Below the pieces are notes generated by a model that was given only the letters and a program-made list of their open reading frames with translations, was not told where the DNA came from and searched no databases. DNA of 26,581 nucleotides from UHGV virus genome UHGV-0119765; one strand, 5' to 3'. Positions 1-17,226 of this stretch are shown in pieces (the stretch's first letter is position 1; every line of letters starts with the position of its first letter). A program made the translations under genes and the position numbers. The DNA comes from a virus.

Positions 1-112
1 CGTTATCAGTGCGAATGGCTGCGAACTGTGCAGGGCGATCTAACGCGGGGTGCGTTCCAAAGGTTTCGTAATCGTGAAAGAGGAAGGTAGGTTGTTTATC
101 TGTGTCTGTCAT
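1..112 (-). CDS. sbcB: Host exodeoxyribonuclease I (SbcB-like), 5' fragment running off the left edge
   Basis: Reverse-strand ATG at 112..110 translates to MTDTDKQPTFLFHDYETFGTHPALDRPAQFAAIRTDN, closely matching the N-terminus of enterobacterial exonuclease I as I remember it. The reading frame continues past position 1. Confidence 0.7.
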   Translation of the reverse strand, partial: MTDTDKQPTFLFHDYETFGTHPALDRPAQFAAIRTDN

Positions 113-293
113 TGTCTAGCATTGTCCACTGTAGTTAATTAACTGTCTGTTATAACTCGAAAAACAACCATTTTTTCACCTGAGTATGTCTACGAACGTC
201 AAATATAGTTGTTTACTGTGCGCTGTTGTCCATGTGATATTGTGTACCAGATGTGTACCAAACCATTATTTTTGAGCGTACCAAATATTATTT

Positions 294-1472
294 ATGGCTA
301 TAAGCGACACAAAACTGCGTACTATTTATGGTAAACCATATTCGGGCCCACAAGAAGTGGCTGATGCAGATGGCCTCAGCGTACGAATTTCACCGAAGGG
401 GGTCATCCAGTTCCAGTACCGCTATCGCTGGCATGGCAAGCCTAATCGCCTTGGGCTTGGTCGATACCCATCCCTGTCTTTGAAGGATGCCAGACAGATC
501 ACTGCTGACTTGCGAAAGCTCTATTTCTCAGGAACGGATCCACGCACCTATTTTGAAGAGAAGGTGGAGAACTCCATGACGGTCGCCCAGTGTCTCGACT
601 ACTGGTTCGACAACTACGTCTCTACAACTCTCAGAGAAAAGACCCAGGCACTTTACCGATCAACGGTTATGAAGCGCATGCATGACGCCTTCCCTAATCG
701 TCCGGCATCTTCTATCACGGTTAAGCAATGGGTTGACCTGCTTACCGAAGAAGAAAAAGATAATCCACGCCGAGCAAGGCAGGTGCTAAGTCAACTAAGA
801 TCAGCAATTAGTTGGTGCATGCGGCGTCAGTTGATAGATAGTTGCGCAATTATGAGCATCCAGCCAAGGGACTTCGGCTCCCGCGCTGAGGTAGGGGATC
901 GGGTACTGTCGTATCACGAACTGGCTAAGATTTGGATTGCTATTGAAAGAAGCCGTGCGTCTACGTCAAATAAGCTCCTTCATCAGATGCTTATGCTGTG
1001 GGGGGCGAGGCTCTCAGAGCTTAGGCTGGCAACAAAGACAGAATTTGACCTGCTGGAAAACGTATGGACCGTACCGAAAGAGCATAGCAAGATGGGTAAT
1101 GTTATCCGCCGTCCAATCTTCGAACAAATTAAGCCTTTCCTCGAAAAGGCCATGACAACGTACAATGATGTTCTTTTCCCTGGAGAAGACATAAACAAAC
1201 CGATCAGCATCGCTGCAGCCAACCGATTCGTAAATAGAATAAGGGGAGGGATGGATATAGGTTACTGGCGAACACATGATTTCAGAAGAACGCTTGTTAC
1301 ACGTCTGTCCGAGATGAATGTCGAGCCTCATGTTACTGAGCGAATGCTCGGTCATGAACTTGGCGGGATAATGTCCGTGTACAATAAACACGATTGGATA
1401 GAGGCTCAGCGCAAAGCGTATGAGCTTCACGCTGATAAATTGTTCTGGCACATCAGGAACATTTCTGGTTAA
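294..1472 (+). CDS. int: Tyrosine recombinase / prophage integrase (P4-like family)
   Basis: 392-aa ORF with ATG at 294. N-terminal arm-binding-type region (GLSVRISPKGVIQFQYRYRWHGK) and C-terminal catalytic signature (HDFRRT box, catalytic Tyr in MSVYNKHDW). Sits at the prophage edge next to the host gene. Confidence 0.9.
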   Translation: MAISDTKLRTIYGKPYSGPQEVADADGLSVRISPKGVIQFQYRYRWHGKPNRLGLGRYPSLSLKDARQITADLRKLYFSGTDPRTYFEEKVENSMTVAQCLDYWFDNYVSTTLREKTQALYRSTVMKRMHDAFPNRPASSITVKQWVDLLTEEEKDNPRRARQVLSQLRSAISWCMRRQLIDSCAIMSIQPRDFGSRAEVGDRVLSYHELAKIWIAIERSRASTSNKLLHQMLMLWGARLSELRLATKTEFDLLENVWTVPKEHSKMGNVIRRPIFEQIKPFLEKAMTTYNDVLFPGEDINKPISIAAANRFVNRIRGGMDIGYWRTHDFRRTLVTRLSEMNVEPHVTERMLGHELGGIMSVYNKHDWIEAQRKAYELHADKLFWHIRNISG

Positions 1473-1644
1473 CGCCACCGTTAAGAATCCACCCTTCAAC
1501 AGCTTCACGAAGGTATGATTTGGGGTGGGTTCTGACTGGCTTCGGAAATCCGTGCCGTTTGGTATAGTTCCAGATTGTCTGACGTGATGAAACACCGAGC
1601 TTGTTCATCACTTCTTTCTCAGGAATCAGGCTGGTATCGGTCAT
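1453..1644 (-). CDS. AlpA/Xis-family excisionase or transcriptional regulator
   Basis: 63-aa ORF (MTDTSLIPEKEVMNKLGVSSRQTIWNYTKRHGFPKPV...) with the AlpA-type HTH pattern. GGAG RBS 8 nt upstream of the ATG at 1644. Its 3' end overlaps the int 3' end by 20 nt (convergent). Confidence 0.75.
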   Translation of the reverse strand: MTDTSLIPEKEVMNKLGVSSRQTIWNYTKRHGFPKPVRTHPKSYLREAVEGWILNGGVNQKCS

Positions 1645-1674
1645 CTTAATTCTCCAGGCAAAAAGAAACCGCCA

Positions 1675-1842
1675 TCAGGCGGCTTGGTGTTCTTTCATTT
1701 CTTCAATTCGAATATTGGTTACGTCTGCATGTGCTATCTGCGCCCATATCATCCAGTGGTCATAGCAGTCGTTGATGTTCTCGGCTTCGATAACTCTGTT
1801 GAATGGTTCTCCATTCCATTCACCTGTAACTCGGAAGTGCAT
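1675..1842 (-). CDS. Hypothetical small protein (55 aa)
   Basis: Not in the ORF track (<60 aa). Reverse-strand ATG at 1842 is preceded by GGAGAT; translates to MHFRVTGEWNGEPFNRVIEAENINDCYDHWMIWAQIAHADVTNIRIEEMKEHQAA. Stop at 1677..1675 lies inside a hairpin followed by a U-rich tract. Confidence 0.45.
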   Translation of the reverse strand: MHFRVTGEWNGEPFNRVIEAENINDCYDHWMIWAQIAHADVTNIRIEEMKEHQAA

Positions 1843-1942
1843 TTATCATCTCCATAAAACAAAACTCGCCGTAGCGAGTTCAGATAAAAGAAATCCCCGC
1901 GAGTGCGAGGATTGTTATTCACCTTTAACGGCAAGTTGCAGG

Positions 1943-4043: not shown

Positions 4044-4207
4044 TGGTTGCCTCCTTTGCGCCACGTCGCATTCAGATATCTGTTGTCGTTAACAGAACCG
4101 AAACTCTTTCTCTTAAGCAATTCCTCTCTCGATGGCATTGGCTTTACGCGTTGGCGAATAATCATTTCTGCCGGAAGAATGCCGGGATTGTATGCAAGTC
4201 CTCTCAT
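4040..4207 (-). CDS. Hypothetical small protein (55 aa)
   Basis: ATG at 4207 preceded by GAGGAA 6 nt upstream ([34 protein letters not shown]...). The longer track ORF would overlap the upstream gene by more than 140 nt. Confidence 0.4.
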
Positions 4208-4217
4208 GGTAAATTCC

Positions 4218-4514
4218 TCAGTCATTACTGATAGCGCCATAGCGTGAGCGGTAATTACGCAGGCGCGGGTCGATATATTCAGGGAAGTTGGTATATGTGG
4301 CTTTGCGGAATGGTCGGATTGATGTCTGGTAAATTCGCTCGCGTTCTTCTTTCTCTGCAAGCCATATACAATGGCGAAATTCCTTTTCCTCTTTCGTTTC
4401 CTGCGGTAGCGACATTATCCGGTCGTAGTTTTTCCTGAATTTATCCAGCACCTCCGATACGGAATTGCCGGAACAGCGGCGCGGGTCATCCGCACCATAC
4501 TGAGGCGCTGGCAT
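4218..4514 (-). CDS. Hypothetical protein (98 aa)
   Basis: ATG at 4514 with AGGAG RBS. No recognisable domain. Confidence 0.6.
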
Positions 4515-4527
4515 GATTTTCTCCTGA

Positions 4528-5034
4528 TTAAATTGCGTGAATAGCGTGACGAGGGAAGGGGAGAGTTACTGGTGCAAAGGGTATATCGTCGTCAAAATCC
4601 ATCGGAGGTTCGTTGTGTTGTGCTGGTGATGATTGCTGCTGTGGCTTCTGTGATTGCCTGCTGGCTGCTTGTTGTTTGCTGTCGCCAATGCTGCCAAGCA
4701 TTTGCATCACGCCATTAATTCCGACATGAACCTCGGTTGTGTAACGGTCTTGCCCTGACTGGTCTTTCCACTTTCTGGTTCTCAGCATTCCCTCGAAATA
4801 AATCTGATCACCTTTTTTCACATACTGCCCCACGACCTCAGCCAGTTTCCCGGATACAGCAACACGATGCCATTCAGTCAATTCCTTTTGCTCGCCAGTA
4901 TTTTTATCTCGCCATTGTTCTGACGTGGCTATTGTCAGGTTAGCGAACGCTGTTCCTGATGGTGAGTATCGAACTTCCGGGTCTTGTCCTACCCGACCAA
5001 GGATAATCACCTTATTTACGCCTCTGCTTGCCAT
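4528..5034 (-). CDS. ssb: Single-stranded DNA-binding protein
   Basis: 168 aa. OB-fold N-terminus ([36 protein letters not shown]), Gln/Pro-rich linker and acidic C-terminal tail DFDDDIPF, the hallmark of bacterial and phage SSB. Confidence 0.95.
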
Positions 5035-5742
5035 CTATGCCGCCTGTTTTAGTTCGTTAACTCTGATGTTCATTACCTGAACGCATTTAGCCTGCGCCTC
5101 CTCGTTGCCAGCCATTAATTGCCAGTCACGCTGATAACGCTCGATGAGTTTTTTCTTGTCAGTTTCTGTTGACGCATAATCGCTGAAGTCTTTCAGGATT
5201 TGTTCGCAGTCAACCGATGGAGATTTCTGGTTGGTATTTTCTGGTGATGGTTTGTTATCTGATGCTGGGATTGCCCATCCCGGCAGCGATGGAGGGGACC
5301 AGTAAAATCCTGTTCCATCCTTCAGTTTTGCCCTGTGCCACCCCTGCTTTTTATCGAGAGATGTTTGTGCGAAACCTTCCTCAAGGTTATACAGATACCG
5401 ACCGATTCCCCACTGAACGGCAGCGCGCTTCATTGCACCGGAACGACCACCTTTGACGGCTTCTACCTGCGTGTTTTCAGCAGCATCCCATTTGGTTACC
5501 CATTCGGAATCAATCTTTATTGATATGCCGCATTCAACTCCGCCGTTGTTGGGAATATCGCGGTATTCATTGCGCCATCCTGCTTTGCCACAAACATCGT
5601 CCAGGCGTTTCATGATTGCCCTGTTCGTTACATAAGCCAGCACCATAGCCCATACCTTGCCATCGCGTGTTTTACCGCTTTGCTGTATTCGCCATTCGAT
5701 ATCTTCAGGGCAGAATGGCTCATCGAATTTGTTCAAATCCAT
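5035..5742 (-). CDS. Rad52/Sak-like single-strand annealing protein
   Basis: 235 aa. Directly upstream of and abutting ssb. N-terminal region (GKTRDGKVWAMVLAYVTNRAIMKRLDDVCGKAGWRNEY...VQWGIGRYLYNL) resembles the phage Rad52-family annealing proteins. AGGTGA RBS. Confidence 0.75.
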   Translation of the reverse strand: MDLNKFDEPFCPEDIEWRIQQSGKTRDGKVWAMVLAYVTNRAIMKRLDDVCGKAGWRNEYRDIPNNGGVECGISIKIDSEWVTKWDAAENTQVEAVKGGRSGAMKRAAVQWGIGRYLYNLEEGFAQTSLDKKQGWHRAKLKDGTGFYWSPPSLPGWAIPASDNKPSPENTNQKSPSVDCEQILKDFSDYASTETDKKKLIERYQRDWQLMAGNEEAQAKCVQVMNIRVNELKQAA

Positions 5743-5841
5743 AATTCACCTCAGAATGGACACGGCCCAAGGAAATAACGCTGATTTAATACTTCGACTC
5801 GGGACAAATTAAGGCATACCCGCATTCCTTCGCGGTCGCCA

Positions 5842-6000
5842 TTATGGCGATACCAGAGAGCTTTCTGCGTGTACATGCGTCTCTGTAACTTGCTCTCCTT
5901 CACTGTGGTTGCAAGTGACATGAATATCTCCTTCGTTGCCGATTAATTCTTTTATCTGACGAATGAATTCTTCGTCTGACCAGTTATCCGTAAAACTCAT
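5842..6000 (-). CDS. Hypothetical small protein (52 aa)
   Basis: ATG at 6000 overlaps the upstream stop (ATGA coupling); MSFTDNWSDEEFIRQIKELIGNEGD... The track ORF starts 10 codons earlier. Confidence 0.4.
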   Translation of the reverse strand: MSFTDNWSDEEFIRQIKELIGNEGDIHVTCNHSEGEQVTETHVHAESSLVSP

Positions 6001-6167
6001 GGACGGCCTTGTTGTTTCAAAATATCCCAAAGCTTTTCGAGCAAACTTTTCATTCTTGGTTGTTTAAAGTCTGCTCCGGTTAAAATATTTTTTCGTGAAT
6101 GCTGTACCGATAAAATCGGGTTGAAAGGGCGAACCGATGCCGCCCCTGCAATAGCGAACTGTTGCAT
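5997..6167 (-). CDS. cIII: cIII-like small regulator (56 aa)
   Basis: ATG at 6167 with a strong AGGAG RBS. MQQFAIAG...KLWDILKQ resembles lambda CIII (MQYAIAG...RLIDILNQ) in sequence and in its position in the leftward early operon. Similarity is partial. Confidence 0.5.
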   Translation of the reverse strand: MQQFAIAGAASVRPFNPILSVQHSRKNILTGADFKQPRMKSLLEKLWDILKQQGRP

Positions 6168-6350
6168 AGGATGCTCCTTCTGTTTGATTGCATAACGAAA
6201 ACGCCTCGAGTGAAGCGTTATTGGTATGCATATAAAAAGGCCCCCACATCGGAGGGCAAAGAAGATTTCCAATAATCAGAACAAGTCGGCTCCTGTTTAG
6301 TTACGAGCGACATTGCTCACATAGCAGACTCGTAAATCTGCTATAGGCGC

Positions 6351-6509
6351 TTATTCGCATCGCATGACAACATCAAATTTTTCGAGATTACTTTGTCGCA
6401 ACAATCCTTCTTCTACTCGGTCAGCTTTTCTATAATTATCAAATTCGAAATGTTTAATTACTTCTTTTGTTTCTCGCTCTATAACTTCAACGATGTATCT
6501 CTTATTCAT
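6351..6509 (-). CDS. Hypothetical small protein (52 aa)
   Basis: Not in the ORF track. ATG at 6509 overlaps the upstream stop (TAATG) and follows AGGTGA; MNKRYIVEVIERETKEVIKHFEFDNYRKADRVEEGLLRQSNLEKFDVVMRCE. AT-rich. Confidence 0.45.
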   Translation of the reverse strand: MNKRYIVEVIERETKEVIKHFEFDNYRKADRVEEGLLRQSNLEKFDVVMRCE

Positions 6510-6778
6510 TACTCATCACCTAGGGCTTTTTTGATAGCTTCGCGAGCCTTATTAACAGCTCCATACCATTCTGGATATGTTGTCGTTGTTCTATTTTCGG
6601 CTTGCTTAAGTAATAACTGAAGTGCTTCAAGTAAATCCGGTGCAGCCATAGCCAACCTTCCATTTGCTACGGCCTCTTCTGTTTCTTTACCGGATAGGGC
6701 CATTCCCGGGTGTGAAAATAAAATTAAGCCTGCAAAATTGGCTTCTCGCCAATTTTTCCTAGTACCTTTAAATTCCAT
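6509..6778 (-). CDS. Hypothetical protein (89 aa)
   Basis: ATG at 6778 preceded by GAGG. The track ORF's GTG at 6814 sits immediately after the upstream stop with no RBS, so the ATG is preferred. Confidence 0.5.
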   Translation of the reverse strand: MEFKGTRKNWREANFAGLILFSHPGMALSGKETEEAVANGRLAMAAPDLLEALQLLLKQAENRTTTTYPEWYGAVNKAREAIKKALGDE

Positions 6779-6816
6779 GTTAGCCTCTGTTGTTATGCCA
6801 AAAATAAAGGCCACCG

Positions 6817-7017
6817 TCAGGCAGCCTTGTTATTCTGTTTACCAAGTTCTCTGGCAATCATTGCCGTAGTTCGTATTGCCCATTTATCGACATACTTCCC
6901 ATCCTCCATTACAGGAAGCATTTCTTCAGGCTTAACCATGCATTCCGATTGCAGTTTGCATCCATTGCATCGCTTGAATTGTCCACACCATTGATTTTTA
7001 TCAATAGTCGTAGTCAT
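6817..7017 (-). CDS. Hypothetical small Cys-rich protein (66 aa)
   Basis: ATG at 7017 with AGGA upstream. Four cysteines in a C-x5-C-x2-C-x5-C arrangement (CGQFKRCNGCKLQSEC) suggest a small zinc-binding protein. Confidence 0.55.
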   Translation of the reverse strand: MTTTIDKNQWCGQFKRCNGCKLQSECMVKPEEMLPVMEDGKYVDKWAIRTTAMIARELGKQNNKAA

Positions 7018-7095
7018 AAGGATAGTCCTGGTATTGCTCCATCACATCCTGCGGATGCTCTTCGAACTCTTCAAATTCTTCTTCCATATCTCACC

Positions 7096-7422
7096 TCAAA
7101 TAAGTGGTTTGCTGCCTAATTTCATTTTCTGGCGACCAACACAAGTCACACCCATTTCACTGCGTGGCTTGCTGTACCATGTGCGCTGATTCTTGCGCTC
7201 AATACGTTGCAGGTTGCTTTCAATCTGTTCGTGGTATTCAGCCAGCACCGTAAGGTCTATCGGATTCAGTGCGCTTTCTACTCGTGATTTCGGTTTGCGA
7301 TTCAGCGAGAGAATAGGGCGGTTAACTGGTTTTGCGCTTACCCCAACCAACAGGGGATTTGCTGCTTTCCATTGAGCCTGTTTCTCTGCGCGACGTTCGC
7401 GGCGGCGTGTTTGTGCATCCAT
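7096..7422 (-). CDS. N: Antitermination protein N (lambda type)
   Basis: 108-aa ORF beginning MDAQTRRRERRAEKQAQWKAANPLLVG, the arginine-rich boxB-binding motif of lambda N. Near-identical to lambda N over most of its length as I remember it. Confidence 0.95.
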   Translation of the reverse strand: MDAQTRRRERRAEKQAQWKAANPLLVGVSAKPVNRPILSLNRKPKSRVESALNPIDLTVLAEYHEQIESNLQRIERKNQRTWYSKPRSEMGVTCVGRQKMKLGSKPLI

Positions 7423-7620
7423 CTGGATTCTCCTGTCAGTTAGCTTTGGTGATTGGATGGCCGGCGCTGAACCCCGGCTTACTGGTTAGAGCGCCCGCAC
7501 TACCAGTGACGCTGTCTTGAGGCGCAGATTGGTTACTGCTTGCCATGAGCGCTGTTTATACATTGGTCGAGCATCAGCCTGCTCATTCATCCAATCCCAA
7601 AGCCTTCTGCTTTGAATGCT

Positions 7621-7651
7621 GCCCTTCTTCAGGGCTAAATTTTTAAGAGCC
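7621..7651 (-). promoter_or_regulatory. nutL site (boxA-like plus boxB hairpin)
   Basis: Reverse complement reads GCTCTTAAAAATTTAGCCCTGAAGAAGGGCA: a boxA-like element and the canonical lambda nutL boxB stem-loop GCCCTGAAGAAGGGC. Lies about 35 nt downstream of the proposed pL start and 200 nt upstream of N. Confidence 0.8.
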
Positions 7652-7690
7652 TCACCTTCAATGGTGGTCAGTGCGTCCTGCTGATGGCTA

Positions 7691-7720
7691 AATAGTACGA
7701 TTTGTACTTTATCGAGTCAA
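7691..7720 (-). promoter_or_regulatory. pL-like early-left promoter with overlapping operator palindrome
   Basis: On the minus strand: -35 TTGACT, 17-nt spacer, -10 TACTAT. An AGTAC-N5-GTACT palindrome overlaps the spacer and -10, as expected for an OL operator. Confidence 0.6.
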
Positions 7721-7783
7721 TACAAAATGTTCTAAATATAATTAGTTTTTTATAACGCTTTGTATTTAATGGGTTTATATTTT

Positions 7784-7813
7784 GGAAAAAGAAAACCCGG
7801 CGCTGAGGCCGGG
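7784..7813 (-). terminator. Rho-independent terminator ending the cI / membrane-protein transcript
   Basis: Stem CCCGGC / GCCGGG with a 6-nt loop, followed on the minus strand by UUUUCUUUUUCC. Positioned between the 7836 stop and pL, like lambda's terminator after rexB. Confidence 0.7.
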
Positions 7814-7835
7814 CTTTTAGGGCGGGTTGATGCTC

Positions 7836-8873
7836 TTAACACCCTTTAATGGGAGTTGAGATACGAGATATCATTGCTGATTCAATTATCCCACTTCTGA
7901 CTTTATAGTCACCAAAAAGAGAAATTGAATCAGAAAGTTTCATGCTTTCATAAAGAAGGTCTGTTTCGTCTTTATCTATAAAATCAGTAACAACATAAGC
8001 AGGGAAGGTATAATCAGTGCCAACCTTTTTGCAAGTTACTGTCAGCTTTCCATCTGATTTTTTAATGCCTTCAATTTCAACTTCTTCTGTAAGTTCTTTG
8101 TTGGAAAGTTTCTCACGTGGGTTTCTTATCATTTCGGCAATATCACGCTTATCTAATTCGATCTTTGCCATACCATTAAACTCTACTCTGTCAGCATCTG
8201 AGACGCCTTTCAACACCCCAACCACAGCATTTGAAGTATGGGATTGAATTCCCTCTGAAATCTCCCTCGCAGCTGCTGTGGCAGTATGAGCAGAAAGAAC
8301 TTCAACCATGCCATCTTTAAGCAGTCTCATTTGCTCAGTTTGGCTGTTGGTGTCGTTGAGGCCTTCATCAATCTCAAGTTGCTTCATTTTTTCTATATGG
8401 CGATCTTTTTGTCTCGACTTTATCAGCCAAGCCCCAGTAAGGATCAGCGATATGAGAACGAGACATATAGCTTTCTCTGTTCCAGTCATACCTTGTGTTG
8501 ACCTCTCAAATGCAACACCAAATGAATCAATTACATCCTTTATAGCAACAAGTAGGTCAGTACAGCCAGGCTCAACTTTAAAAATTATCTCAAGCTCTTT
8601 TCTATCACTGTCTTTCAAATGCTTGAGATTATCCGTTCCTCGCCTTACAAGCATAAACGCTTTATAAAGTTCGGTCTGAAACTCGCACATACCTTGAGCT
8701 AAAGAGGACGGTATCGTCCCATTATACCGGTCTGGATCACCATAAATCTTGAAACTTACGTGGTTAACAAAATCAATTTTAATGTCATTGATAGATATTT
8801 GCTGACCTTTCTGAACTCTTTCTAAAAACTCTGAAACGTCGCTTAATGATGAGATATCAATTTGATTGTCCAT
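7836..8873 (-). CDS. Unknown single-pass membrane protein at the rexAB-equivalent position (moron; candidate exclusion/defence gene)
   Basis: Long uninterrupted ORF (345 aa from the ATG at 8873; 355 aa from the alternative TTG at 8903, which overlaps the cI stop). Same strand and immediately downstream of cI. One central hydrophobic helix (KAICLVLISLILTGAWLIKS) flanked by two soluble halves. AT-richer than flanking lambda-like DNA (about 35% GC in a 60-nt sample). No family recognised. Confidence 0.8.
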   Translation of the reverse strand: MDNQIDISSLSDVSEFLERVQKGQQISINDIKIDFVNHVSFKIYGDPDRYNGTIPSSLAQGMCEFQTELYKAFMLVRRGTDNLKHLKDSDRKELEIIFKVEPGCTDLLVAIKDVIDSFGVAFERSTQGMTGTEKAICLVLISLILTGAWLIKSRQKDRHIEKMKQLEIDEGLNDTNSQTEQMRLLKDGMVEVLSAHTATAAAREISEGIQSHTSNAVVGVLKGVSDADRVEFNGMAKIELDKRDIAEMIRNPREKLSNKELTEEVEIEGIKKSDGKLTVTCKKVGTDYTFPAYVVTDFIDKDETDLLYESMKLSDSISLFGDYKVRSGIIESAMISRISTPIKGC

Positions 8874-8895
8874 ATCTTTTCTCAATGTTATTGTG

Positions 8896-9555
8896 TTAAC
8901 CAAACGTCTCTTCTGGCCACTGGCTGGCGATAACTTTCCCTACAACGGAACAGCTATCATTGCATGGGATCATTGGATATTGCGGGTTTAGTGGTTGTAG
9001 GAACACCTGACCGCTATCCCTGATCAGTTTCTTGAAGGTAAACTCGTCACCACCAAGTCTGGCTATGCAGAAATCACCTGGCTCAACAGCCTGCTCAGGG
9101 TCAACGAGAATTAACATCCCGTCAGGAAAGCTTGGCTTGGATCCTGTTGGTGCGGTCATGGAATTACCTTCAACTTCAAGCCAGAACGCACAATCACTAG
9201 CTTTTTTGGTTGTGCTGACCCATCTCTCCGCATCACCTTTGGTAAAGGTTCTAAGCTCAGGCGAGAACATCCCGGCCTGAACATGAGAAAAAACAGGGTA
9301 CTCATGTTGTTTTTTAACGGGGGCAGATGAGTATTCGCCAACAGGTGAAAATGTACCGTCGTGGTTGAATGAGACGTTATCAATACCAAGGTATTTAAAC
9401 ACCACACCAATCTCGTCAAGAGATGGATGACGAGATCCGCGCAACCAGTGACCAATTCCACCCTGCGTCATACCAAGCTCTTCAGCTAACTTCTCTTGAG
9501 TTATGCCGAGCTCTTTCATTCTGGATCTAGCCAGTTCATACCATTTCATTTTCAT
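8896..9555 (-). CDS. cI: CI-type prophage repressor (LexA/S24 peptidase fold)
   Basis: ATG at 9555 ([37 protein letters not shown]...). The C-terminal ~130 aa ([20 protein letters not shown]...[12 protein letters not shown]) match the lambda cI C-terminal domain; the N-terminal HTH domain is different. No SD upstream, consistent with a leaderless PRM transcript. The track ORF extends 54 codons further 5' without support. Confidence 0.9.
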
Positions 9556-9665
9556 ACCATTATTATTACGCTCTGTACTAAAACCATCCATGCACAAGAT
9601 GTATTTTTGTTTGCATTCTAAAAGTACATATCGTATTATTGTTTCATGGTTACTATGGAGGGCAT
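9556..9665. promoter_or_regulatory. OR region: divergent PR (cro) and PRM (cI) promoters with operator sites
   Basis: PR on the plus strand: -35 TTGCAT (9611-9616), 17-nt spacer, -10 TATTAT (9634-9639), GGAGG RBS before cro. GTAC-containing partial palindromes resemble the OL palindrome. PRM placement is tentative. Confidence 0.65.
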
Positions 9666-9881
9666 ATGAGCAACCTACGAAAATATCGAGAGTCACTGAA
9701 TATCTCTCAAACAACACTTGCTAAGGCAGTTGGATGCACACAGGGAGCTATCGGACATTGGGAATCTGGTCGTCGCTTCCCAGACCTTAAAACATGCCGT
9801 GCTCTTGTTGAGTGCCTAAACAAGTTAGGCGCAAAAGTCAGTCTTGATGACGTGTTCCCGCCGGAACACAAAGCCGCTTAA
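9666..9881 (+). CDS. cro: Cro-like XRE-family HTH regulator
   Basis: 71 aa from the ATG at 9666 with GGAGG RBS. HTH region [27 protein letters not shown]. Divergent from cI across the operator region. Confidence 0.8.
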
Positions 9882-9889
9882 GACATTCC

Positions 9890-9921
9890 CGCTCTTACAC
9901 ATCCCAGCCCTGAAAAAGGGC
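9890..9921 (+). promoter_or_regulatory. nutR site (boxA CGCTCTTAC plus boxB GCCCTGAAAAAGGGC)
   Basis: Exact lambda-type boxA and boxB directly after the cro stop. An inverted repeat GTATGCAtttatttTGCATAC follows at 9943-9966, in the lambda tR1 position. Confidence 0.85.
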
Positions 9922-10000
9922 ATCAAATTAAACCACACCTATGGTGTATGCATTTATTTGCATACATTCAATCAATTGTTATCTAAGGAAATACTTACAT

Positions 10001-10297
10001 ATGGTTCGTGCAAACAAACGCAACGAGGCACTACGAATCGAGAGTGCGTTGCTTAACAAAATCGCAATGCTTGGAACTGAGAAGACAGCGGAAGCTGTGG
10101 GAGTTGATAAGTCGCAGATCAGCAGGTGGAAGAGGGATTGGATTCCAAAGTTCTCAATGCTGCTTGCTGTTCTTGAATGGGGCGTCGTTGACGACGATAT
10201 GGCTCGATTGGCACGACAAGTTGCTTCGATTCTCACCAATAAAAAACGCTCGGTGTGCAAGACCGAGCGTTCTGATCAAATCCAGATGGAATTTTAA
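10001..10297 (+). CDS. cII: Transcriptional activator CII (lambda type)
   Basis: MVRANKRNEALRIESALLNKIAMLGTEKTAEAVGVDKSQISRWKRDWIPKFSMLLAVLEWG... is essentially lambda CII. ATG at 10001 preceded by AAGGAA. The track ORF starting at 9941 is an unsupported extension. Confidence 0.95.
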   Translation: MVRANKRNEALRIESALLNKIAMLGTEKTAEAVGVDKSQISRWKRDWIPKFSMLLAVLEWGVVDDDMARLARQVASILTNKKRSVCKTERSDQIQMEF

Positions 10298-10319
10298 CAA
10301 CATCCAACGAGGTAATTAT

Positions 10320-10592
10320 ATGCGAAACAAAGGCTTTAATCCACCTGATACACACAAAGAAGCCAAGCGCTTGCGCTTCCTTCGTTCCATTGATGAAAGA
10401 ACTCAAATCTCTTTTGTGAAAGTTGCCAGAACTGAGCTTCTGAAGGCTGAGGCGAGGGCGTTGCTCCCGTCTCTACCAAAAGAGGAGGGATATACGTTCA
10501 TTCCAAATGCATTTCTGGAAAAGCTGCTCAAAGAAGACATATCCGTAAGTCAGTTTAACGATGTTCTTAAGGTCTTTCGTCAAGGCAGGTAG
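10320..10592 (+). CDS. Hypothetical protein (90 aa) between cII and the replication genes
   Basis: ATG at 10320 with AGGT RBS (MRNKGFNPPDTHKEAKRLRFLRSIDERTQISFVKVART...). It is the in-frame C-terminal part of the 10008..10592 track ORF, whose upstream portion overlaps cII. Confidence 0.55.
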   Translation: MRNKGFNPPDTHKEAKRLRFLRSIDERTQISFVKVARTELLKAEARALLPSLPKEEGYTFIPNAFLEKLLKEDISVSQFNDVLKVFRQGR

Positions 10593-10594
10593 TT

Positions 10595-11542
10595 ATGAGC
10601 AATACAGCAAAAATCTACGATTTCAGCGCCGCACACGAGCGCAGGAGCAACAGGATGGAGAACCAGAAAACTGGTTACATTCCGTTGTACCGGAGCATTC
10701 TGAAACAGTCATGGGCGAAAGATGTTTATCTTCGCACCCTGTGGGAAAACCTTCTCCTGAATGCCGCCAGAAAGCCATACAAAGCGAATTTCAAAGGTCA
10801 TGAATGGCATCTGCAACCCGGTCAACTGGTTGTGACAGCAGCTGATTTAGGTCTTCAGTTATGCGACAGGCATGGCAAGCCGGCAAGCCGTGATCAGGTT
10901 GAGCGGATGCTTCAGGTTTTTGTGAAAGAGGGGATGATCACCATTGATGGAGAGAAGCAAAAAGGTCGTGTGATCACCATCACAAATTACCATGAATATG
11001 CTCAAAAAATGGACAATTTACCCGCACATGAAGCCGCACAAACAACCGCACATGATGCCGCACATGATGAAGCCAGTAATGGCGCGGCTTTCAGCGTACA
11101 TGCCGCACATGAAAGCGCACATGAAGCCGCACAAACAACCGCACATCATGAACAAGAAGGTATTAACAAGAATATAAATAATACCCCCCTACCCCCCAAT
11201 GGGGGAGGCGATGGGCAGGTTAAACCTGAACGTCGCAAGGCAGAACGAATCGACTACGAATCCTTCCTGAACGCCTACAACACCGAAGTCGGTGACAGAC
11301 TGCCACACGCTGTTGCGGTCAACGAGAAACGCAAACGTCGCTTGAAGAAAATCATTCCGCAACTGAAAACGCCAAACGTGGACGGTTTCAGAGCGTATGT
11401 CAGGGCGTTTGTGCATCAGGCCAAGCCGTTTTACTTCGGAGACAACGACACGGGCTGGACGGCCGATTTTGATTACCTGCTGAGGGAAGACTCGTTAACG
11501 GGAGTTCGGGAAGGGAAGTTTGCAGACAGGGGGATTGAATGA
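10595..11542 (+). CDS. Replication initiator, lambda O-like / P22 gene 18-like
   Basis: 315 aa. N-terminus [10 protein letters not shown] resembles lambda O (MTNTAKILNF). An internal iteron array and Pro/Gly linker separate the N and C domains. Immediately followed by, and translationally coupled to, a DnaB-type helicase. Confidence 0.85.
11021..11213 (+). repeat. Origin-like iteron array, AT-rich tract and C/G palindrome inside the O-like gene
   Basis: At least seven direct copies of CGCACA(T/A) (CCGCACATGA / GCGCACATGA / CCGCACAAAC) across 11021-11150, then an AT-rich run (gaacaagaaggtattaacaagaatataaataata) and CCCCCCaatGGGGG. Same architecture as ori-lambda inside O. Confidence 0.7.
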
Positions 11543-12915
11543 GACAGGATATCGAAGCGAGCGTTATCGGTGGCTTGCTGATTGGTGGATTAACACCAAC
11601 CGCCAGCGACGTTCTGGCAACGCTGGAGCCGGAAGCGTTTTCAATTCCGCTCTACCGGAAAGCCTTCGAGGTTATCCGCAAGCAGGCGAGAAACAGAAAC
11701 CTAATCGACGCGCTGATGGTTGCCGAGGCGTGCGGAGAGGAGCATTTCACGTCAATCCTGATGACCAGCAAAAACTGCCCGAGTGCCGCAAACCTGAAGG
11801 GATATGCCGGAATGGTCGCGGATAACTATCACCGCCGTCTGGTGCTGGAAATCATGGATGAAATGCGTGAACCAATTCAGAGCGGAACCATCGACGCATC
11901 GAGTCAGGCGATGGATGAGCTTGTAAAGCGTCTTTCAGCCATCAGAAAGCCCCGTGACGAGGTTAAGCCGGTACGGTTAGGGGAAATCATCACCGACTAC
12001 ACTGACACGCTTGACAGGCGCCTGAGGAACGGAGAAGAGTCAGATACCCTGAAGACCGGAATCGAAGAACTTGACGCTATCACCGGAGGGATGAATGCAG
12101 AAGACCTGGTGATTATCGCCGCTCGTCCTGGTATGGGGAAAACCGAACTGGCGCTGAAGATTGCCGAAGGCGTTGCAAGCCGCGTTATCCCTGGTTCTGA
12201 CGTTCGGCGCGGAGTGTTGATTTTCTCGATGGAAATGAGCGCATTGCAGATTGCAGAGCGAAGCATTGCCAACGCCGGGAGAATGTCGGTTAGCGTACTG
12301 CGAAATCCTGCATCGATGGATGACGAAGGCTGGGCGCGTGTTGCTAACGGCATGAGTCAGCTTGCAGATTTGGATGTATGGGTAGTCGATGCCTCGCGGT
12401 TATCGGTCGAAGAAATTCGCTCAATCGCAGAAAGGCACAAACAGGAAAATCCAAACCTGTCACTCATCATGGCGGATTATCTTGGCCTGATTGAGAAGCC
12501 GAAAGCAGACCGCAACGACCTCGCAATTGCTCACATCTCCGGAAGCATGAAGGCGATGGCGAAAGACCTGAAAACACCGGTTATTTCCCTGAGTCAGCTT
12601 TCACGCGATGTTGAGAAGCGACCAAACAAGCGCCCGACAAACGCAGATTTGCGTGATTCAGGAAGCATTGAACAGGACGCAGACTCAATCATCATGCTCT
12701 ATCGGGAAGCTGTATATGACGAGAACAGTAGCGCCGCGCCATTTGCTGAAATCATCGTGACGAAAAACCGTTTTGGCTCACTTGGTACGGTTTACCAGCG
12801 GTTCTGCAACGGACACTTTGTTGCGTGTGACCAGGATGAAGCCAGACAGATTTGCACAGCATCAAATGCACCTGCTGCGCGTGGCAGACGATATGCACAA
12901 GGGGCTGACGTATGA
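11539..12915 (+). CDS. Replicative DNA helicase, DnaB family (P22 gene 12-like)
   Basis: 458 aa. Walker [18 protein letters not shown], plus conserved DnaB motifs ([23 protein letters not shown]). ATG overlaps the O-like stop (ATGA). Confidence 0.95.
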
Positions 12916-12940
12916 CCATCTACATCACTGAGCTAATAAC

Positions 12941-12973
12941 AGGCCTGCTGGTAATCGCAGGCCTTTTTATTTG
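12941..12973 (+). terminator. tR2-like rho-independent terminator
   Basis: 8-bp GC-rich stem AGGCCTGC / GCAGGCCT with an 8-nt loop, followed by TTTTTATTT, just after the helicase stop and before the nin region. Confidence 0.75.
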
Positions 12974-13000
12974 GGGGAGAGTAATTGGAGGCTTTAAGAA

Positions 13001-13228
13001 ATGAGTTCGATGACTGAGCTTGTCCGCGCCGACTTTCAGGAGAACATTGGTCGTGCAAATCGGTACTGGTCTGCTTCCAGACTTCCGACTGGCGAGAGAC
13101 AGAAAAACGCCCCTAAGCCACGTATCTATCCGCGTGACCGCGTTCTTCGCCGGTTGGTTAAAATCGATAATGATTTTCAGTGTGACAGAATTATCCAGCA
13201 ATTAGATTTGATGACTGATGATGAATGA
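13001..13228 (+). CDS. Hypothetical protein (75 aa)
   Basis: ATG at 13001 with GGAGG RBS. First gene after the tR2-like terminator; no family recognised. Confidence 0.6.
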   Translation: MSSMTELVRADFQENIGRANRYWSASRLPTGERQKNAPKPRIYPRDRVLRRLVKIDNDFQCDRIIQQLDLMTDDE

Positions 13229-13643
13229 TTTCATTCTGCACGAAACCAATAAATCACAATTCTGGTTAGTTCTGAAACAAATCCTCTCTACCGGCAAACG
13301 CTGGCGAATCAAAATATCTGAGTACCGTGAGAAGCGTACATTGTCACAAAACAATCTGATGTGGGTGTGGAATGCAGAAATAGCCGCACAGTTATCTGCT
13401 GCTTCTGCTGAAAACTTCACGCCTGAAGAGGTTCATGAGTGGCTGAAAGATATATTTTGTCCGGCTAAAAGGGTGACGATTTTTAATATTACACGATGCG
13501 TTAAATCAACACGTCAGCTTGATATTGGAGATATGCACAAATATCTGACCGATATTGACCAGTGGGCGCATCAGAAGGGATTACGACTAACCATTCCTGA
13601 TAATTGCGAGTACCTGGATCTAAAGGAGAGGCAAGTAGAGTGA
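13218..13643 (+). CDS. ninB: NinB-family recombination protein
   Basis: 141 aa. The TLSQNNLMWVWNAEIA segment matches the NinB family signature (lambda NinB has SLDQNRKLWA). Position is consistent with the nin region. Confidence 0.75.
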   Translation: MMNDFILHETNKSQFWLVLKQILSTGKRWRIKISEYREKRTLSQNNLMWVWNAEIAAQLSAASAENFTPEEVHEWLKDIFCPAKRVTIFNITRCVKSTRQLDIGDMHKYLTDIDQWAHQKGLRLTIPDNCEYLDLKERQVE

Positions 13644-14167
13644 CTATCAAATCAAATACGCCGGCACACGACAAGGACTGCTGGCAAACGCCGCTTTGGC
13701 TTTTTGATGCACTGGATATTGAGTTTGGATTCTGGCTGGATTCGGCAGCGAGCGACAAAAATGCTCTGTGCGCTCACTGGCTAACTGAGGCCGACGACGC
13801 GCTCAATTCTGAGTGGGTAAGCCACGGTGCAATCTGGAATAACCCACCGTACAGCAATATCAGGCCGTGGGTGGAAAAAGCTGCTGAGCAGTGCATACAA
13901 CAGCGACAGACGGTAGTGATGCTTGTGCCAGAGGATATGTCAGTCGGATGGTTCAGCAAGGCTCTGGAGAGCGTTGACGAAGTTCGCATCATCACTGATG
14001 GACGGATTAATTTTATCGAACCATCGACGGGGCTGGAGAAGAAGGGAAACAGCAAAGGCTCCATGCTGCTGATTTGGCGACCGTTCATCAGTCCTCGACG
14101 GATGTTTACTACCGTATCCAAAGCGGCATTGATGGCGATCGGGCAGGGCGTCAGGAGGGCGACATGA
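13640..14167 (+). CDS. Phage-type DNA N6-adenine methyltransferase (Dam family)
   Basis: GTG start overlapping the ninB stop (GTGA), GGAGAG RBS 9 nt upstream. CWQTP...LF N-terminal motif and catalytic NPPY (IWNNPPYSN). Confidence 0.85.
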
Positions 14168-14346
14168 GACGACAGCGACGAAGTTTCACCGACATCATCT
14201 GCGAAAACTGCAAATACCTTCCAACGAAACGCTCCAGAAATAAACGCAAGCCAATTCCAAAAGAATCTGACGTAAAAACCTTCAACTACACGGCTCACCT
14301 GTGGGATATCCGGTGGCTAAGAAATCGTGCGAGGAATACAAGGTGA
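14164..14346 (+). CDS. ninE: NinE-like protein (60 aa)
   Basis: ATG overlaps the Dam stop (ATGA), [60 protein letters not shown] matches lambda NinE as I remember it. Confidence 0.8.
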
Positions 14347-14513
14347 TTGACCCAAATCGAAGTTACGAACAAGAAAGCGTCGAGCGGGCTTTAACGTGCG
14401 CTAATTGCGGTCAGAAGCTGCATGTGCTGGAAGTTCACGTATGTGAGCACTGCTGCGCAGAACTGATGAGCGATCCGAATAGCTCAATGTTCGAGGAAGA
14501 AGACGATGAATGA
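14343..14513 (+). CDS. ninF: NinF-like protein (56 aa)
   Basis: GTG start overlapping the ninE stop, GAGGAA RBS. Cys-rich [29 protein letters not shown] matches lambda NinF. Confidence 0.75.
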
Positions 14514-14973
14514 GTTAATAAATGGCAATGCCATCAAAATGACAAGCATTGAAATCGCTGAGTTGGTTGGTAAGCGTCATGACAATGTGAAACGTACCAT
14601 AATAAAAAACGGGATAAAGCACGATATTAAATATGAATATTATGAAAATAATCTAGGATTCAAAGTTAAGCGAGAGGTTTTTGTTGTTGATGCTGATGTT
14701 GCTAACGTGTTTAAGCATCAGAGAATAGCATTAAATAGATGTGCTGAGACAATAGCATTAACCACCATCGAACAATTACAAGGAGTTAAATTAATAAGGC
14801 AATATCCGGTTTTAGATAAATACCGCATAGATGGCTATGATCCTGTAAACAATATCGCCTATGAAATAGACGAGGAACAACATTTTGCGCCTCAGCATAT
14901 GGACGCGGATCGCATTCGCGAGGAAGAGATAAAATCGGCGTTAGGTTGTAAGTTTGTGCGCATTCGCGTTTAA
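14506..14973 (+). CDS. Moron: Rha-like N-terminal domain fused to a putative DUF559/Vsr-like (restriction-endonuclease-fold) C-terminal domain
   Basis: 155 aa, AT-rich (about 36% GC). N-terminus IKMTSIEIAELVGKRHDNVKR parallels the Rha-type N-terminus of the next gene. The C-terminal YRIDGYDPVNNIAYEIDEEQHF block fits the YR.D...IA.E.D...H pattern of DUF559/Vsr-like nuclease domains. Confidence 0.75.
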   Translation: MNELINGNAIKMTSIEIAELVGKRHDNVKRTIIKNGIKHDIKYEYYENNLGFKVKREVFVVDADVANVFKHQRIALNRCAETIALTTIEQLQGVKLIRQYPVLDKYRIDGYDPVNNIAYEIDEEQHFAPQHMDADRIREEEIKSALGCKFVRIRV

Positions 14974-15004
14974 GTGAATACAATTTGCAAACCGGAGAAT
15001 AGCA

Positions 15005-15730
15005 ATGAGTAATTTAATTTGTTTCTCTTCCGTTAAGATGACCAGTATCGAAATTGCCGAACTGGCAGAAAGCCGCCATAGCAATGTAAAAGTATCCATA
15101 GATAGATTGGTGAAACGTGGCGCTATCAAGCCTCCTGCATTGCAGCACACTAACATAATCAATGATTTAGGTGTTATTACCGGGAAGCGTGATTTCTACG
15201 TCTTCGAAGGCGAACAAGGTAAGCGCGACAGCATTATTGTCGTTGCCCAGTTGTCGCCGGAATTCACCGCTCGCCTTGTTGACCGCTGGATAGAGCTTGA
15301 AGAAGCTGCGGTTAATATCCCCAAAACGCTACCGGAAGCGTTGCGCCTTGCTGCTGACCTTGCTGAGCAGAAAATGCAACTGGAAAACCAGCTCGCAATT
15401 GCCGCACCTAAAGTTGAGTTTGCCGATCGCGTTGGCGAGGCCAGCGGAATTTTGATTGGAAACTTTGCAAAGGTTGTCGGTATTGGTCCAAACAAACTGT
15501 TTGCGTGGATGCGCGATCACAAAATCCTTATTGCTTCAGGTTCCCGGCGCAATGTGCCAATGCAGGAATATATGGATCGCGGCTATTTCACAGTGAAAGA
15601 AACAGCGGTCAACACAAATCACGGAATACAGATATCGTTCACCACAAAAATCACCGGGCGTGGTCAACAGTGGCTGACCAGAAAGCTGCTCGATAACGGA
15701 ATGCTGAAAGTAACAGGTGAGGCTGCTTAA
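15005..15730 (+). CDS. Phage antirepressor (Rha-type N-terminal domain plus KilA-C C-terminal domain)
   Basis: 241 aa, GGAG RBS. N-terminus VKMTSIEIAELAESRHSNVK; C-terminal region (FAKVVGIGPNKLFAWMRDHKILIASGSRRNVPMQEYMDRGYF) is characteristic of KilA-C antirepressors. Confidence 0.85.
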   Translation: MSNLICFSSVKMTSIEIAELAESRHSNVKVSIDRLVKRGAIKPPALQHTNIINDLGVITGKRDFYVFEGEQGKRDSIIVVAQLSPEFTARLVDRWIELEEAAVNIPKTLPEALRLAADLAEQKMQLENQLAIAAPKVEFADRVGEASGILIGNFAKVVGIGPNKLFAWMRDHKILIASGSRRNVPMQEYMDRGYFTVKETAVNTNHGIQISFTTKITGRGQQWLTRKLLDNGMLKVTGEAA

Positions 15731-16020
15731 TGGCTAATCTACGCAAAGAAGCACGCGGCAGAGAATGCCAGGTACGTATTTACGGCGTATGCAATGGCAA
15801 CCCTGAAACTACAGTTCTGGCACATTACCGGATGGCTGGAATTTGCGGAACGGGAATGAAGCCTGACGACCTGATCGGCGCATGGGCTTGTAGCGCGTGT
15901 CACGATGAAATCGACCGACGCACCCATAATCTCGACAACAAAGACGCCAGACTTTACCACCTCGAAGGCGTGATCAGGACGCAGGCGATACTGCTGAAGG
16001 AGGGGAAGATTAAGTCATGA
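15730..16020 (+). CDS. DUF1364-family nin-region protein (Cys-rich, 96 aa)
   Basis: ATG overlaps the antirepressor stop (TAATG). Cysteine pairs CQVRIYGVC ... CSACHD are typical of the DUF1364 proteins found next to rusA. Confidence 0.75.
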   Translation: MANLRKEARGRECQVRIYGVCNGNPETTVLAHYRMAGICGTGMKPDDLIGAWACSACHDEIDRRTHNLDNKDARLYHLEGVIRTQAILLKEGKIKS

Positions 16021-17184: not shown

Positions 17185-17226
17185 CAGCATGATTGCCACG
17201 GATGGCAACATATTAACGGCATGATA

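Follow-up and report, generated by a model that had tools for sequence, protein, structure and literature searches.

The window, as the whole analysed stretch of 26,581 nt from the virus genome UHGV-0119765 is called here, opens in the bacterial gene sbcB, crosses a short junction and a spacer, and continues into int, which meets the small gene xis on the opposite strand (Table 1). The int product carries an Arm-DNA-bind_3 domain (PF13356, E 8e-18) and a Phage_integrase domain (PF00589, E 1e-16), and catalytic-type motifs (ARLSE, HDFRR, LGHE, VYNK) can be read in its sequence; no Shine–Dalgarno sequence precedes its ATG. At the amino acid level Int is 98.5–99.0 % identical to its counterparts in mEp234, HK544 and HK140, 56 % identical to Int of the Stx phage Φ24B (E 3e-171) and 23 % identical to CP4-57 IntA. 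On the NCBIfam P4-type integrase model (PRK09692) it scores 50.5 bits, below the threshold of 434. Judged by these matches, Int is a distant relative of the P4-type integrases.

Table 1. Features of the left end of the window, with the evidence for each
Feature	Position (nt)	Strand	Evidence or remark
Host-derived sbcB (exonuclease I), codon 17 onwards, cut by the window	1–66	-	Identical or near-identical to empty sites in K-12-like and EC08 genomes; Pfam RNase_T
att core CGTAATCGTGAAA	67–79		attL crossover region; sbcB strand reads TTTCACGATTACG = F-H-D-Y-(E)
Phage-borne sbcB 5' end, start codon and first 11 codons	80–112	-	In HK140/mEp234 attP, absent from empty sites
Five same-strand TTGTYYA boxes	92–98, 112–118, 122–128, 209–215, 226–232	+	Enriched in relatives
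P' arm of attL, wholly phage DNA	113–293		Candidate arm-type sites; presumably int promoter and leftward sbcB promoter
Candidate leftward promoter for rebuilt sbcB, TGGACA-N19-TATATT	202–232	-	Relaxed scan; predicted
Best sigma-70-like candidate for int promoter, TTTACT-N18-TGtGATATT	212–241	+	Relaxed scan; predicted
Candidate Int arm-type site P'1, GTGTACCAGA	242–251	+	GTAC block position-conserved in relatives
Candidate Int arm-type site P'2, GTGTACCAAA	253–262	+	11 bp from P'1
Candidate Int arm-type site P'3, GCGTACCAAA	276–285	+	23 bp from P'2, 9 bp before int ATG
int, tyrosine recombinase with N-terminal arm-binding domain	294–1472	+	392 aa; Pfam PF13356, PF00589; PHROG 1
xis, small HTH recombination directionality factor	1453–1644	-	63 aa; convergent with int; PHROG 66; homology to Φ24B Xis
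Intrinsic terminator hairpin just upstream of xis	1666–1685	-	Leftward (pL-direction) strand; 8-bp stem then CTTTTTGCCT (terminator scan)

The Xis protein matches PHROG 66, 'excisionase and transcriptional regulator' (E 1.9e-8), and is 47 % identical (E 4e-19) to the Xis of Φ24B, which has been validated experimentally and is required for excision (PMC3064807). In relatives xis is always found at the int 3' end, and the terminator before it is also annotated in HK140. A preliminary description of this DNA had int reading away from the junction and converging on an AlpA-type excisionase gene with a 20-nt overlap. The orientation and the overlap, which spans exactly 20 nt at 1453–1472, were confirmed, as was an HTH gene of excisionase type. 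The AlpA label is weak, with 17.8 bits against a cutoff of 21 on Pfam Phage_AlpA (PF05930). No NCBIfam match to Xis was obtained, and a sequence search of solved structures returned nothing below E 0.26. The identical protein is labelled AlpA family in RefSeq phage records.

The same description had likened the int–xis layout to that of P4 and CP4-57, and this comparison failed, since alpA and vis are distant from and co-directional with the respective int. In CP4-57 the order is intA (+), yfjH (-), alpA (+), with alpA 1.2 kb downstream, and in P4 vis (ORF88) shares the strand of int at a distance of 4.8 kb, unlike the convergent xis of the window. The arrangement is instead that of Φ24B and phage 86, and also of P27, in which int is inverted relative to the lambda/pL operon and xis is convergent with int and overlaps its 3' end. 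In Φ24B, int occupies 236–1405 and xis 1389–1571, an overlap of 17 nt versus 20 nt in the window. Φ24B int has a TTG start and an AGGA ribosome-binding site, whereas int in the window starts with ATG and has no Shine–Dalgarno sequence. The Φ24B module has been characterised experimentally; that of the window is known from its sequence.

The att core was located by a four-way comparison of attB (L004 and L005), attP (HK140 and mEp234), attL (the window and phage 1717) and attR (EC11), in which only the 13 bp CGTAATCGTGAAA were common to all four. This core lies inside the sbcB coding sequence and occurs once in the window. An identical 13 bp is marked in the GenBank records of phage 1717 and mEp234 (insertion duplication or type-2851 attP), and a CGTAATCGTGAAA core inside sbcB has been published for phages 2851 and Sf101 (PMC4159516). 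Phage homology begins at position 67 and is unbroken through int. The attP of the free phages HK140 and mEp234 holds everything from position 67 rightwards, including the apparent sbcB start, and the empty sites part from the window sequence right of position 79. The attR of the prophage itself lies beyond the window. In EC11, which has an identical left end, the core recurs 39.6 kb away beside dacD, marking attR, and there it is accompanied by the native sbcB start and promoter, about 39.6 kb from attL. A frameshifted HumD remnant adjoins attR in this genome. The identical sbcB junction is shared by 582 of 5426 complete E. coli genomes (~11 %).

These data bear out a prophage left junction at sbcB, as had been proposed, as well as the proposed absence of a tRNA at the junction: ARAGORN detected no tRNA or tmRNA in the window and no Rfam family was found in positions 1–2500. 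The preliminary description had further placed attL within the spacer at 113–293 and taken the sbcB upstream region as the target, so that the phage would insert into non-coding DNA and spare the host gene together with its start. An apparent sbcB start codon 181 bp from int, with repeats in between, and the absence of a tRNA from the window would be in keeping with such an account. However, the attP of HK140 and mEp234 includes that 'sbcB start' while the empty sites diverge right of 79, EC11 has the native start and promoter at attR, some 39.6 kb distant, and the published core (PMC4159516) falls inside sbcB. Upstream targeting is refuted by the four-way att comparison and retains next to no probability. 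Comparison with empty sites, which the preliminary description had itself named as a check, puts the prophage boundary at 67–79, to the left of the proposed spacer location. The spacer between the sbcB start and int does exist, measuring 181 bp rather than 180, and is entirely phage DNA. Integration inside sbcB can be regarded as established; Int recombines the 13-bp core at host sbcB codons 13–17 (F-H-D-Y-E), where the exonuclease domain begins.

The sbcB start codon in the window is the complement of 110–112, and the fragment translates to MTDTDKQPTFLFHDYETFG... with the phage-supplied N-terminus MTDTDKQPTFL in place of the host MMNDGKQQSTFL. The gene is annotated as intact in RefSeq in lysogens, with 1425 nt versus 1428 nt. 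Comparison with free phages and empty sites assigns to the phage the start codon, 11 initial codons and all DNA upstream of them. As attP carries an in-frame sbcB-like start beside the core, integration restores sbcB as an intact gene whose N-terminus derives from the phage. The native promoter is displaced to attR, so the rebuilt gene would have to use a phage-derived one. With the start codon, 11 codons and the entire promoter region coming from the phage, sbcB expression would be under phage-supplied signals in every such lysogen. Φ24B also supplies the 5' end of its target gene, at −196 from int versus −182 in the window. Replacement of the 5' end and promoter, seen also in the Φ24B clade (at argW), may be a trait of the integrase lineage. 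The idea that another species carries the phage-borne start in its native sbcB was considered and rejected: in a scan of one genome per species, the exact 23-mer was found in one E. coli lysogen only, and such an exact scan is insensitive to diverged copies of the start, which would escape it.

The spacer forms the P' arm of attL and contains three copies of a GTACCA(A/G) repeat (GTACCAG at 244–250, GTACCAA at 255–261 and GTACCAA at 278–284). The pattern KYGTACCARA occurs at just three places in the 26.6-kb window, all within 242–285, versus 0.24 expected, and 0 of 100 shuffles reached three; the clustering exceeds chance. Two further copies of GTACCAAA are present in the other attP arm, 62–78 bp beyond the core in attP and attR, as read from EC11 and the free phages, whose left ends are identical or 98 % identical to the window. 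In four relatives with Int 49–62 % identical, GTAC repeats lie at about −300, −288, −50, −39 and −16 from the int start, with a spacing of 12 | 11, 20–24. The five GTAC blocks are fully invariant in an alignment of otherwise weakly conserved DNA with 62 % mean column identity. Positional conservation was used here instead of a de novo 7-mer repeat search allowing one mismatch, which was too noisy in the AT-rich arms. The flanks of the motif shift in concert with the Int lineage, from GTACCAAA here to GTACA(G/T)AA in the relatives, and the GTACCA motif is absent from the immunity region. IHF consensus matches in attP were at chance level, with a lone one-mismatch match overlapping P'2.

The GTACCA(A/G) repeats are, from their sequence and placement, good candidates for Int arm-type sites in a 2 + 2 + 1 layout as in P4. 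The satellite phage P4, which shares the arm-binding N-domain in its integrase, has annotated arm repeats consisting of a tandem pair with 12-bp spacing in the far arm, a second tandem pair in the arm next to int and a single copy at the int start codon, the layout proposed here as well. It differs in the repeat motif (GGGGGCA), in the inverted orientation of the third proximal repeat and in its target, a tRNA-Leu 3' end. The Φ24B clade has five GTAC-type repeats at positions matching those of the window; Φ24B itself has another core, the 5' end of the tRNA-Arg gene argW as its target, and the repeat flanks GTACA(G/T)AA. The repeats could alternatively be real and conserved yet serve as promoter elements or be bound by another protein, such as the excisionase, a host factor or an int regulator. 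GTAC is a palindromic tetramer, and the repeats sit where the int promoter must be, with the mapped Φ24B transcription start falling among their equivalents. Against this, their distribution over both arms (2 + 3) and their conserved distances to the core and to int agree with the pattern of arm-type sites and with the arm repeats annotated in P4. One domain of Int is dedicated to arm binding; the motif is missing from the immunity region, and its flanks co-vary with the Int lineage. We consider a role other than Int binding unlikely. The preliminary suggestion of Int arm sites is thereby supported at the level of predicted binding, with all three copies present one position to the left of the proposed span (244–284 instead of 245–285). 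Int very probably docks on the three P' repeats and, at attR, on the two P-arm repeats. No published arm-site map for type-2851 att was found in the literature searched.

TTGTC-type repeats, described earlier at 100–150, were also found: CATTGTCTAG and CATTGTCCAC stand in tandem at 110–129, with the TTGTC repeats at 112–128. A TTGTYYA pattern, picked after inspection of the sequence, occurs six times in HK140 attP (0.2 expected), four times in a Klebsiella phage (0.34 expected) and three times in P27 (0.28 expected), always on one strand. The box at 226–231 is invariant in four relatives; TTGTYYA as such is absent from two others. These boxes may, with low confidence, be bound by the excisionase or by some other accessory protein.

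A strict scan of positions 1–2000 gave no sigma-70 promoter, and the −10/−35 elements of the candidates from a relaxed scan (Table 1) were not alignable between relatives. No lambda CII-type site (TTGC-N6-TTGC) was present in 113–293, and counts across the window were at chance level. The candidate arm sites lie 9–52 bp upstream of the int ATG, and therefore any int promoter must overlap or abut them. By position, the int promoter would overlap the arm sites. On the Φ24B sequence, the published int transcription start maps between P'2 and P'3. For that phage, Xis function, CI-independence of int and the int transcription start have been shown experimentally (PMC3064807). Autoregulation of int where its promoter overlaps attL has been established for KplE1; the same paper names P4 as a similar case and mentions negative autoregulation of P4 int (PMC2951348). 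The IntS/TorI system of KplE1 (CPS-53) resembles the predicted layout of the window module in that int points away from the junction, a promoter dedicated to it lies within attL in a region overlapped by arm-type sites, and transcription of the RDF gene is separate (PMC2951348). It differs in belonging to another integrase lineage and in targeting the argW 3' end, and autoregulation is experimental there but inferred in the window.

On these precedents (Φ24B, KplE1 and P4), int would be unreadable from pL and would have its own promoter in the P' arm, and a low level of Int in the lysogen would therefore be expected. Int probably represses its own gene through P'1–P'3. As xis is on the pL strand and preceded by an intrinsic terminator, production of Xis would have to await induction and N antitermination, which would render excision conditional. 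Lambda is similar in having a core with P and P' arm-type sites (2 + 3) and in producing Xis from pL after induction. In lambda, however, pL transcribes both xis and int, which point the same way, and sib retroregulation operates, whereas int in the window is inverted and has a predicted promoter of its own.

The recombination module does not differ from that of the type-2851 phages (the Stx2c phages 2851 and 1717, the Shigella phage Sf101, and HK140, HK544 and mEp234), with Int 98–99 % identical, Xis 100 % identical and the P' arm sequence shared. The first 1.9 kb of the window are 98–99 % identical at the nucleotide level to HK140, mEp234, Sf101 and 2851 (98.5 % for 2851). The remainder of the prophage is a different mosaic; its head genes are P22-like, and the window has no stx. 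This mosaic structure, together with the frameshifted HumD remnant near attR in EC11, might be taken to indicate a decaying, non-functional remnant in which neither the repeats nor the gene overlap would still serve a function. Such decay is very unlikely, as int and xis are full-length ORFs, the near-identical phages are viable, the core is intact, as is each of the five arm repeats, and the window carries complete early, lysis and head genes. Taken as a whole, window positions 1–1685 very probably represent the attL end of a P22-like, lambdoid prophage whose site-specific recombination system is the published type 2851.

The sbcB-inserting integration module is an already known element, and finding it here is real but ordinary; the current understanding of site-specific recombination is unchanged by it. 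The arm-site map is a small addition. Comprising 2 + 3 GTAC repeats shared with the Φ24B clade, this candidate map would explain the unusually long minimal attP of Φ24B, although the fit to P'3 being essential is qualitative. The candidate sites are also defined targets for engineering or blocking the integrase family. The sbcB site is one of the standard insertion loci for typing Stx2c prophages in E. coli O157, and the same integration module moves O-antigen-modifying genes in Shigella. Knowledge of the exact junction, with the core inside sbcB and a phage-supplied start, guards against errors in annotating prophage borders and the start of sbcB.

A further, joint reading is tentative and on balance doubtful, namely that the prophage could tune exonuclease I, a 3'–5' ssDNA exonuclease, through the phage promoter and pL read-through, combined with mutual antisense control of int and xis and with 5'-end replacement as a trait of the lineage. 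If this were so, induced, N-antiterminated pL transcripts passing xis would cross int in antisense orientation and then enter sbcB in the sense direction, and the convergent int/xis overlap could give mutual antisense control. The tuned exonuclease would be one that antagonises the prophage's own Erf/Abc-type recombination functions, and sbcB would be under phage signals in the ~11 % of complete E. coli genomes with this junction, including Stx2c O157 strains.

The left end of the prophage is shared with known chromosomes and phages. Over its first 2.4 kb the window matches several complete E. coli chromosomes at 100 % identity, and window 67-1900 has 98-99 % identity to phages HK140, mEp234, HK544, Sf101, 2851 and the Stx2c phage 1717. 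Phage homology starts at 67, not 113. Positions 67-79 match 13 bp annotated as a 'duplication due to insertion' in the GenBank record of phage 1717 and as a 'prophage attachment site (type 2851)' in that of mEp234. In a four-way comparison anchored on this 13-mer, using attL (window and 1717), attB (K-12-like genome, strain EC08), attR (strain EC11, since the attR belonging to the window falls outside it) and attP (HK140 and mEp234), attL was identical to attB left of the CGTAATCGTGAAA core and to attP right of it, with attR reciprocal. The empty-site comparison proposed in the preliminary description thus delimits an attL core, at 67-79. The spacer at 113-293, where that description had placed the crossover, is ruled out as the crossover site, as attL equals attP right of the core. 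The window holds a single copy of the core, and 582 of 5426 E. coli genomes in the complete-genome collection carry the same junction. The same core is given in the Sf101 paper (PMC4159516). Sequence identity of 98-100 % places the element in the type-2851 system, and the finding is therefore already known. The earlier statement that no tRNA lies at the junction held, with no tRNA or tmRNA detected in the window by ARAGORN and no relevant family in an Rfam scan of 1-2500.

Translation of the complement of 2-112 gives MTDTDKQPTFLFHDYETFGTHPALDRPAQFAAIRTDN, which is the N-terminal end of exonuclease I (SbcB); Pfam RNase_T matches this fragment from residue 12. Read along the sbcB strand, the core is TTT CAC GAT TAC G, encoding F-H-D-Y-(E), native residues 13-17, so the target is inside the sbcB coding sequence and not the upstream region first named. 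The DEDD exonuclease domain begins at these residues, and its first acidic D-x-E motif is located there. In EC11 the native N-terminus MMNDGKQQSTFL and native upstream region have been moved to attR, ~39.6 kb away, adjoining dacD. There (prophage region L006, 41318-41426) the displaced sbcB promoter and the 16 codons after it continue into the P arm of the phage, forming a 19-codon dead-end ORF (MMNDGKQQSTFLFHDYAQHP, then stop). Immediately upstream of this attR is a HumD-like remnant with a frameshift. The free-phage attP of HK140 (record L002, 1440-1546) holds a twin 19-codon ORF (MTDTDKQPTFLFHDYAQYP, then stop), the head of which, MTDTDKQPTFL, is the phage-borne beginning of sbcB in the lysogen. 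RefSeq calls the rebuilt gene intact (1425 nt vs 1428 nt). The att comparison and the phage-borne sbcB head together assign the 'sbcB start' at 110-112 and the whole 113-293 spacer to phage DNA, the spacer being the P' arm of attL.

Rebuilt sbcB is presumably transcribed from a phage-supplied promoter, for which a relaxed candidate is listed in the table. Leftward, pL-direction transcripts passing the terminator and xis (1453-1, minus strand) would be antisense to int and then sense into rebuilt sbcB. Given this geometry, prophage induction might raise sbcB transcription and lower int. Genes for an anti-RecBCD protein, an SSB and a Rad52/Erf-type annealing protein are also present in the EC11 prophage (L006 5938-7462, approximately window 4200-5750). 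Rewiring of the exonuclease I gene and these genes in one prophage may reflect a functional link or coincidence.

Features of the left prophage end, with GTAC-centred repeats of relatives placed relative to the int start
Feature	Position	Strand	Remark
int	294..1472	+	392 aa, ORF list
xis-like ORF	1453..1644	-	63 aa, ORF list
Repeat copy 1	244-250		GTACCAG
Repeat copy 2	255-261		GTACCAA
Repeat copy 3	278-284		GTACCAA
Best relaxed int promoter candidate	212-241		TTTACT-N18-TGtGATATT
Best relaxed candidate promoter for rebuilt sbcB	232-202	-	TGGACA-N19-TATATT
Intrinsic terminator	1685-1666		directly before xis; annotated in HK140 too
Repeats, HK140 (window's type)	P arm -301, -289; P' arm -50, -39, -16
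Repeats, Klebsiella P12620-1	P arm -302, -290; P' arm -50, -39, -15
Repeats, P27	P arm -296, -284; P' arm -52, -41, -17
Repeats, ENT39118	P arm -280, -268; P' arm -38, -27, -7

The convergent int and small excisionase-type gene were found as described, their 3' ends overlapping by exactly 20 nt. Int has the Pfam domains Arm-DNA-bind_3 (E 8e-18) and Phage_integrase (E 1e-16). For the 63-aa protein, the excisionase assignment agrees with a match to PHROG 66, 'excisionase and transcriptional regulator' (E 1.9e-8), but the AlpA label does not reach threshold (AlpA/HTH_17, 17.8 bits; cutoff 21). A 55-aa ORF (1675-1842, minus strand) between the early-left genes and xis ends at the terminator preceding xis; it has a full-length match to PHROG 676, of unknown function (E 3e-39), and its HK140 counterpart is annotated as similar to lambda p35.

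The likeness to P4 and CP4-57 did not extend to gene layout. CP4-57 has the order intA (+), yfjH (-), alpA (+), and P4 has vis on the same strand as int but 4.8 kb away from it, whereas the convergent overlap of the window is shared with Φ24B, phage 86 and P27. The Φ24B genes are at 236-1405 (int) and 1389-1571 (xis), and their products are 56 % (Int) and 47 % (Xis) identical to the window proteins. Φ24B int is inverted relative to lambda (Fogg et al., PMC3064807) and is expressed in lysogens from its own promoter independently of CI; its Int alone is unable to excise, and the excisionase is the small convergent ORF (PMC3064807). The Φ24B/P27-type attP (L016 1-236; L007) carries the first ~27 nt (5' end) of tRNA-Arg(CCT)/argW on the strand opposite int, with argW nucleotide 1 at -196 from the int start; the phage-borne sbcB start of the window is at -182. 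In the lysogen record of Klebsiella phage 1 LV-2017 (L011 231-305) the tRNA is complete and points away from int. Both clades, 2851 and Φ24B, insert at the 5' end of a target gene and supply that end at the same distance from int, possibly a new observation, and this integrase clade seems to insert at gene 5' ends, supplying the 5' end and promoter.

The GTACCA(A/G) direct repeats reported before int were confirmed. KYGTACCARA has only these three sites in 26.6 kb (0.24 expected; three reached in 0 of 100 shuffles), and two further copies, tgTGTACCAAAttGCGTACCAAAc, lie across the core in attP/attR, 62-78 bp from it. Phages with related Int proteins were then compared: Klebsiella phage P12620-1 (62 % identity), P27 and Φ24B (56 %), Klebsiella phage 1 LV-2017 (55 %) and Cronobacter phage ENT39118 (49 %). 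The table gives the GTAC-centred repeats of P12620-1, P27 and ENT39118 beside those of HK140. When the 340 bp preceding int were aligned four ways, mean column identity was 62 %, with the five GTAC blocks as fully invariant runs. Repeat flanks were lineage-specific (GTACCAAA in the window type, GTACA(G/T)AA in the other relatives), a pattern expected if an integrase and its sites evolve jointly. In P4 the arm repeats, as annotated, follow the same plan: a far-arm tandem pair (12-bp spacing), an int-proximal tandem pair and one at the int start codon. Because of the conserved layout, lineage-linked flanks, P4 plan and Int arm-binding domain, Int arm-type sites are the best reading of the GTAC repeats and, taken alone, a probable one. 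No paper mapping arm sites of this att type was found in the literature searched, and an explicit 2 + 3 map common to the 2851 and Φ24B clades may be of modest novelty. The minimal attP of Φ24B is 350-427 bp (PMC7581858), a size that would fit a requirement for the outermost repeats.

Transcription of Φ24B int starts 46 bp past the GTG formerly taken as its start codon (PMC3064807). That GTG is at record position 161, and by our mapping the transcript begins at ~207, which falls after the second proximal GTAC repeat and before the third. By analogy, the int promoter of the window would lie inside 212-285 or directly beside it; a strict scan of 1-2000 found no promoter. Int bound at the candidate sites P'1-P'3 (242-251, 253-262 and 276-285) would then repress it, as integrase autorepression has been shown for KplE1 IntS, with P4 cited as similar (PMC2951348). 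The xis gene is on the leftward early operon strand, as are N, cIII and kil. With xis behind a terminator on this strand, Xis would be made only after induction and N antitermination. No TTGC-N6-TTGC motif (CII/C1-type activator) was found near int, and one-mismatch copies across the window were at chance level. The only two perfect motifs in the window are at 10010-10023 and 16848-16861, both on the minus strand.

The TTGTC-type repeats proved to be a tandem pair, CATTGTCTAG and CATTGTCCAC, at 110-129, belonging to a looser TTGTYYA family on the same strand at 92, 112, 122, 209 and 226. With this pattern, chosen after inspection of the sequence, copies numbered 6 vs 0.2 expected in HK140, 4 vs 0.34 in the Klebsiella phage and 3 vs 0.28 in P27, with zero on the opposite strand in all three; TTGTYYA as such is absent from two relatives. 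These boxes are at most candidate binding sites for excisionase or another accessory protein. The box at 226-231 (GTYCA), ~16 bp ahead of the first arm repeat on the int-proximal side, is unchanged in 4/4 aligned relatives amid poorly conserved DNA and may belong to the int promoter or to some other protein-binding site.

Beyond the junction, the first 6 kb of the window is identical or nearly so (99.8 %) to the EC11 prophage. The tRNA-Asn/tRNA-Thr pair that follows the Q gene in EC11 (L006 19262-19417) is missing from the window. Coverage of window 5800-9000 does not exceed 78 % in any complete E. coli genome of the collection, and from ~6000 to 19600 the match to the EC11 prophage is mosaic, made up of blocks at 92-99 % and gaps.
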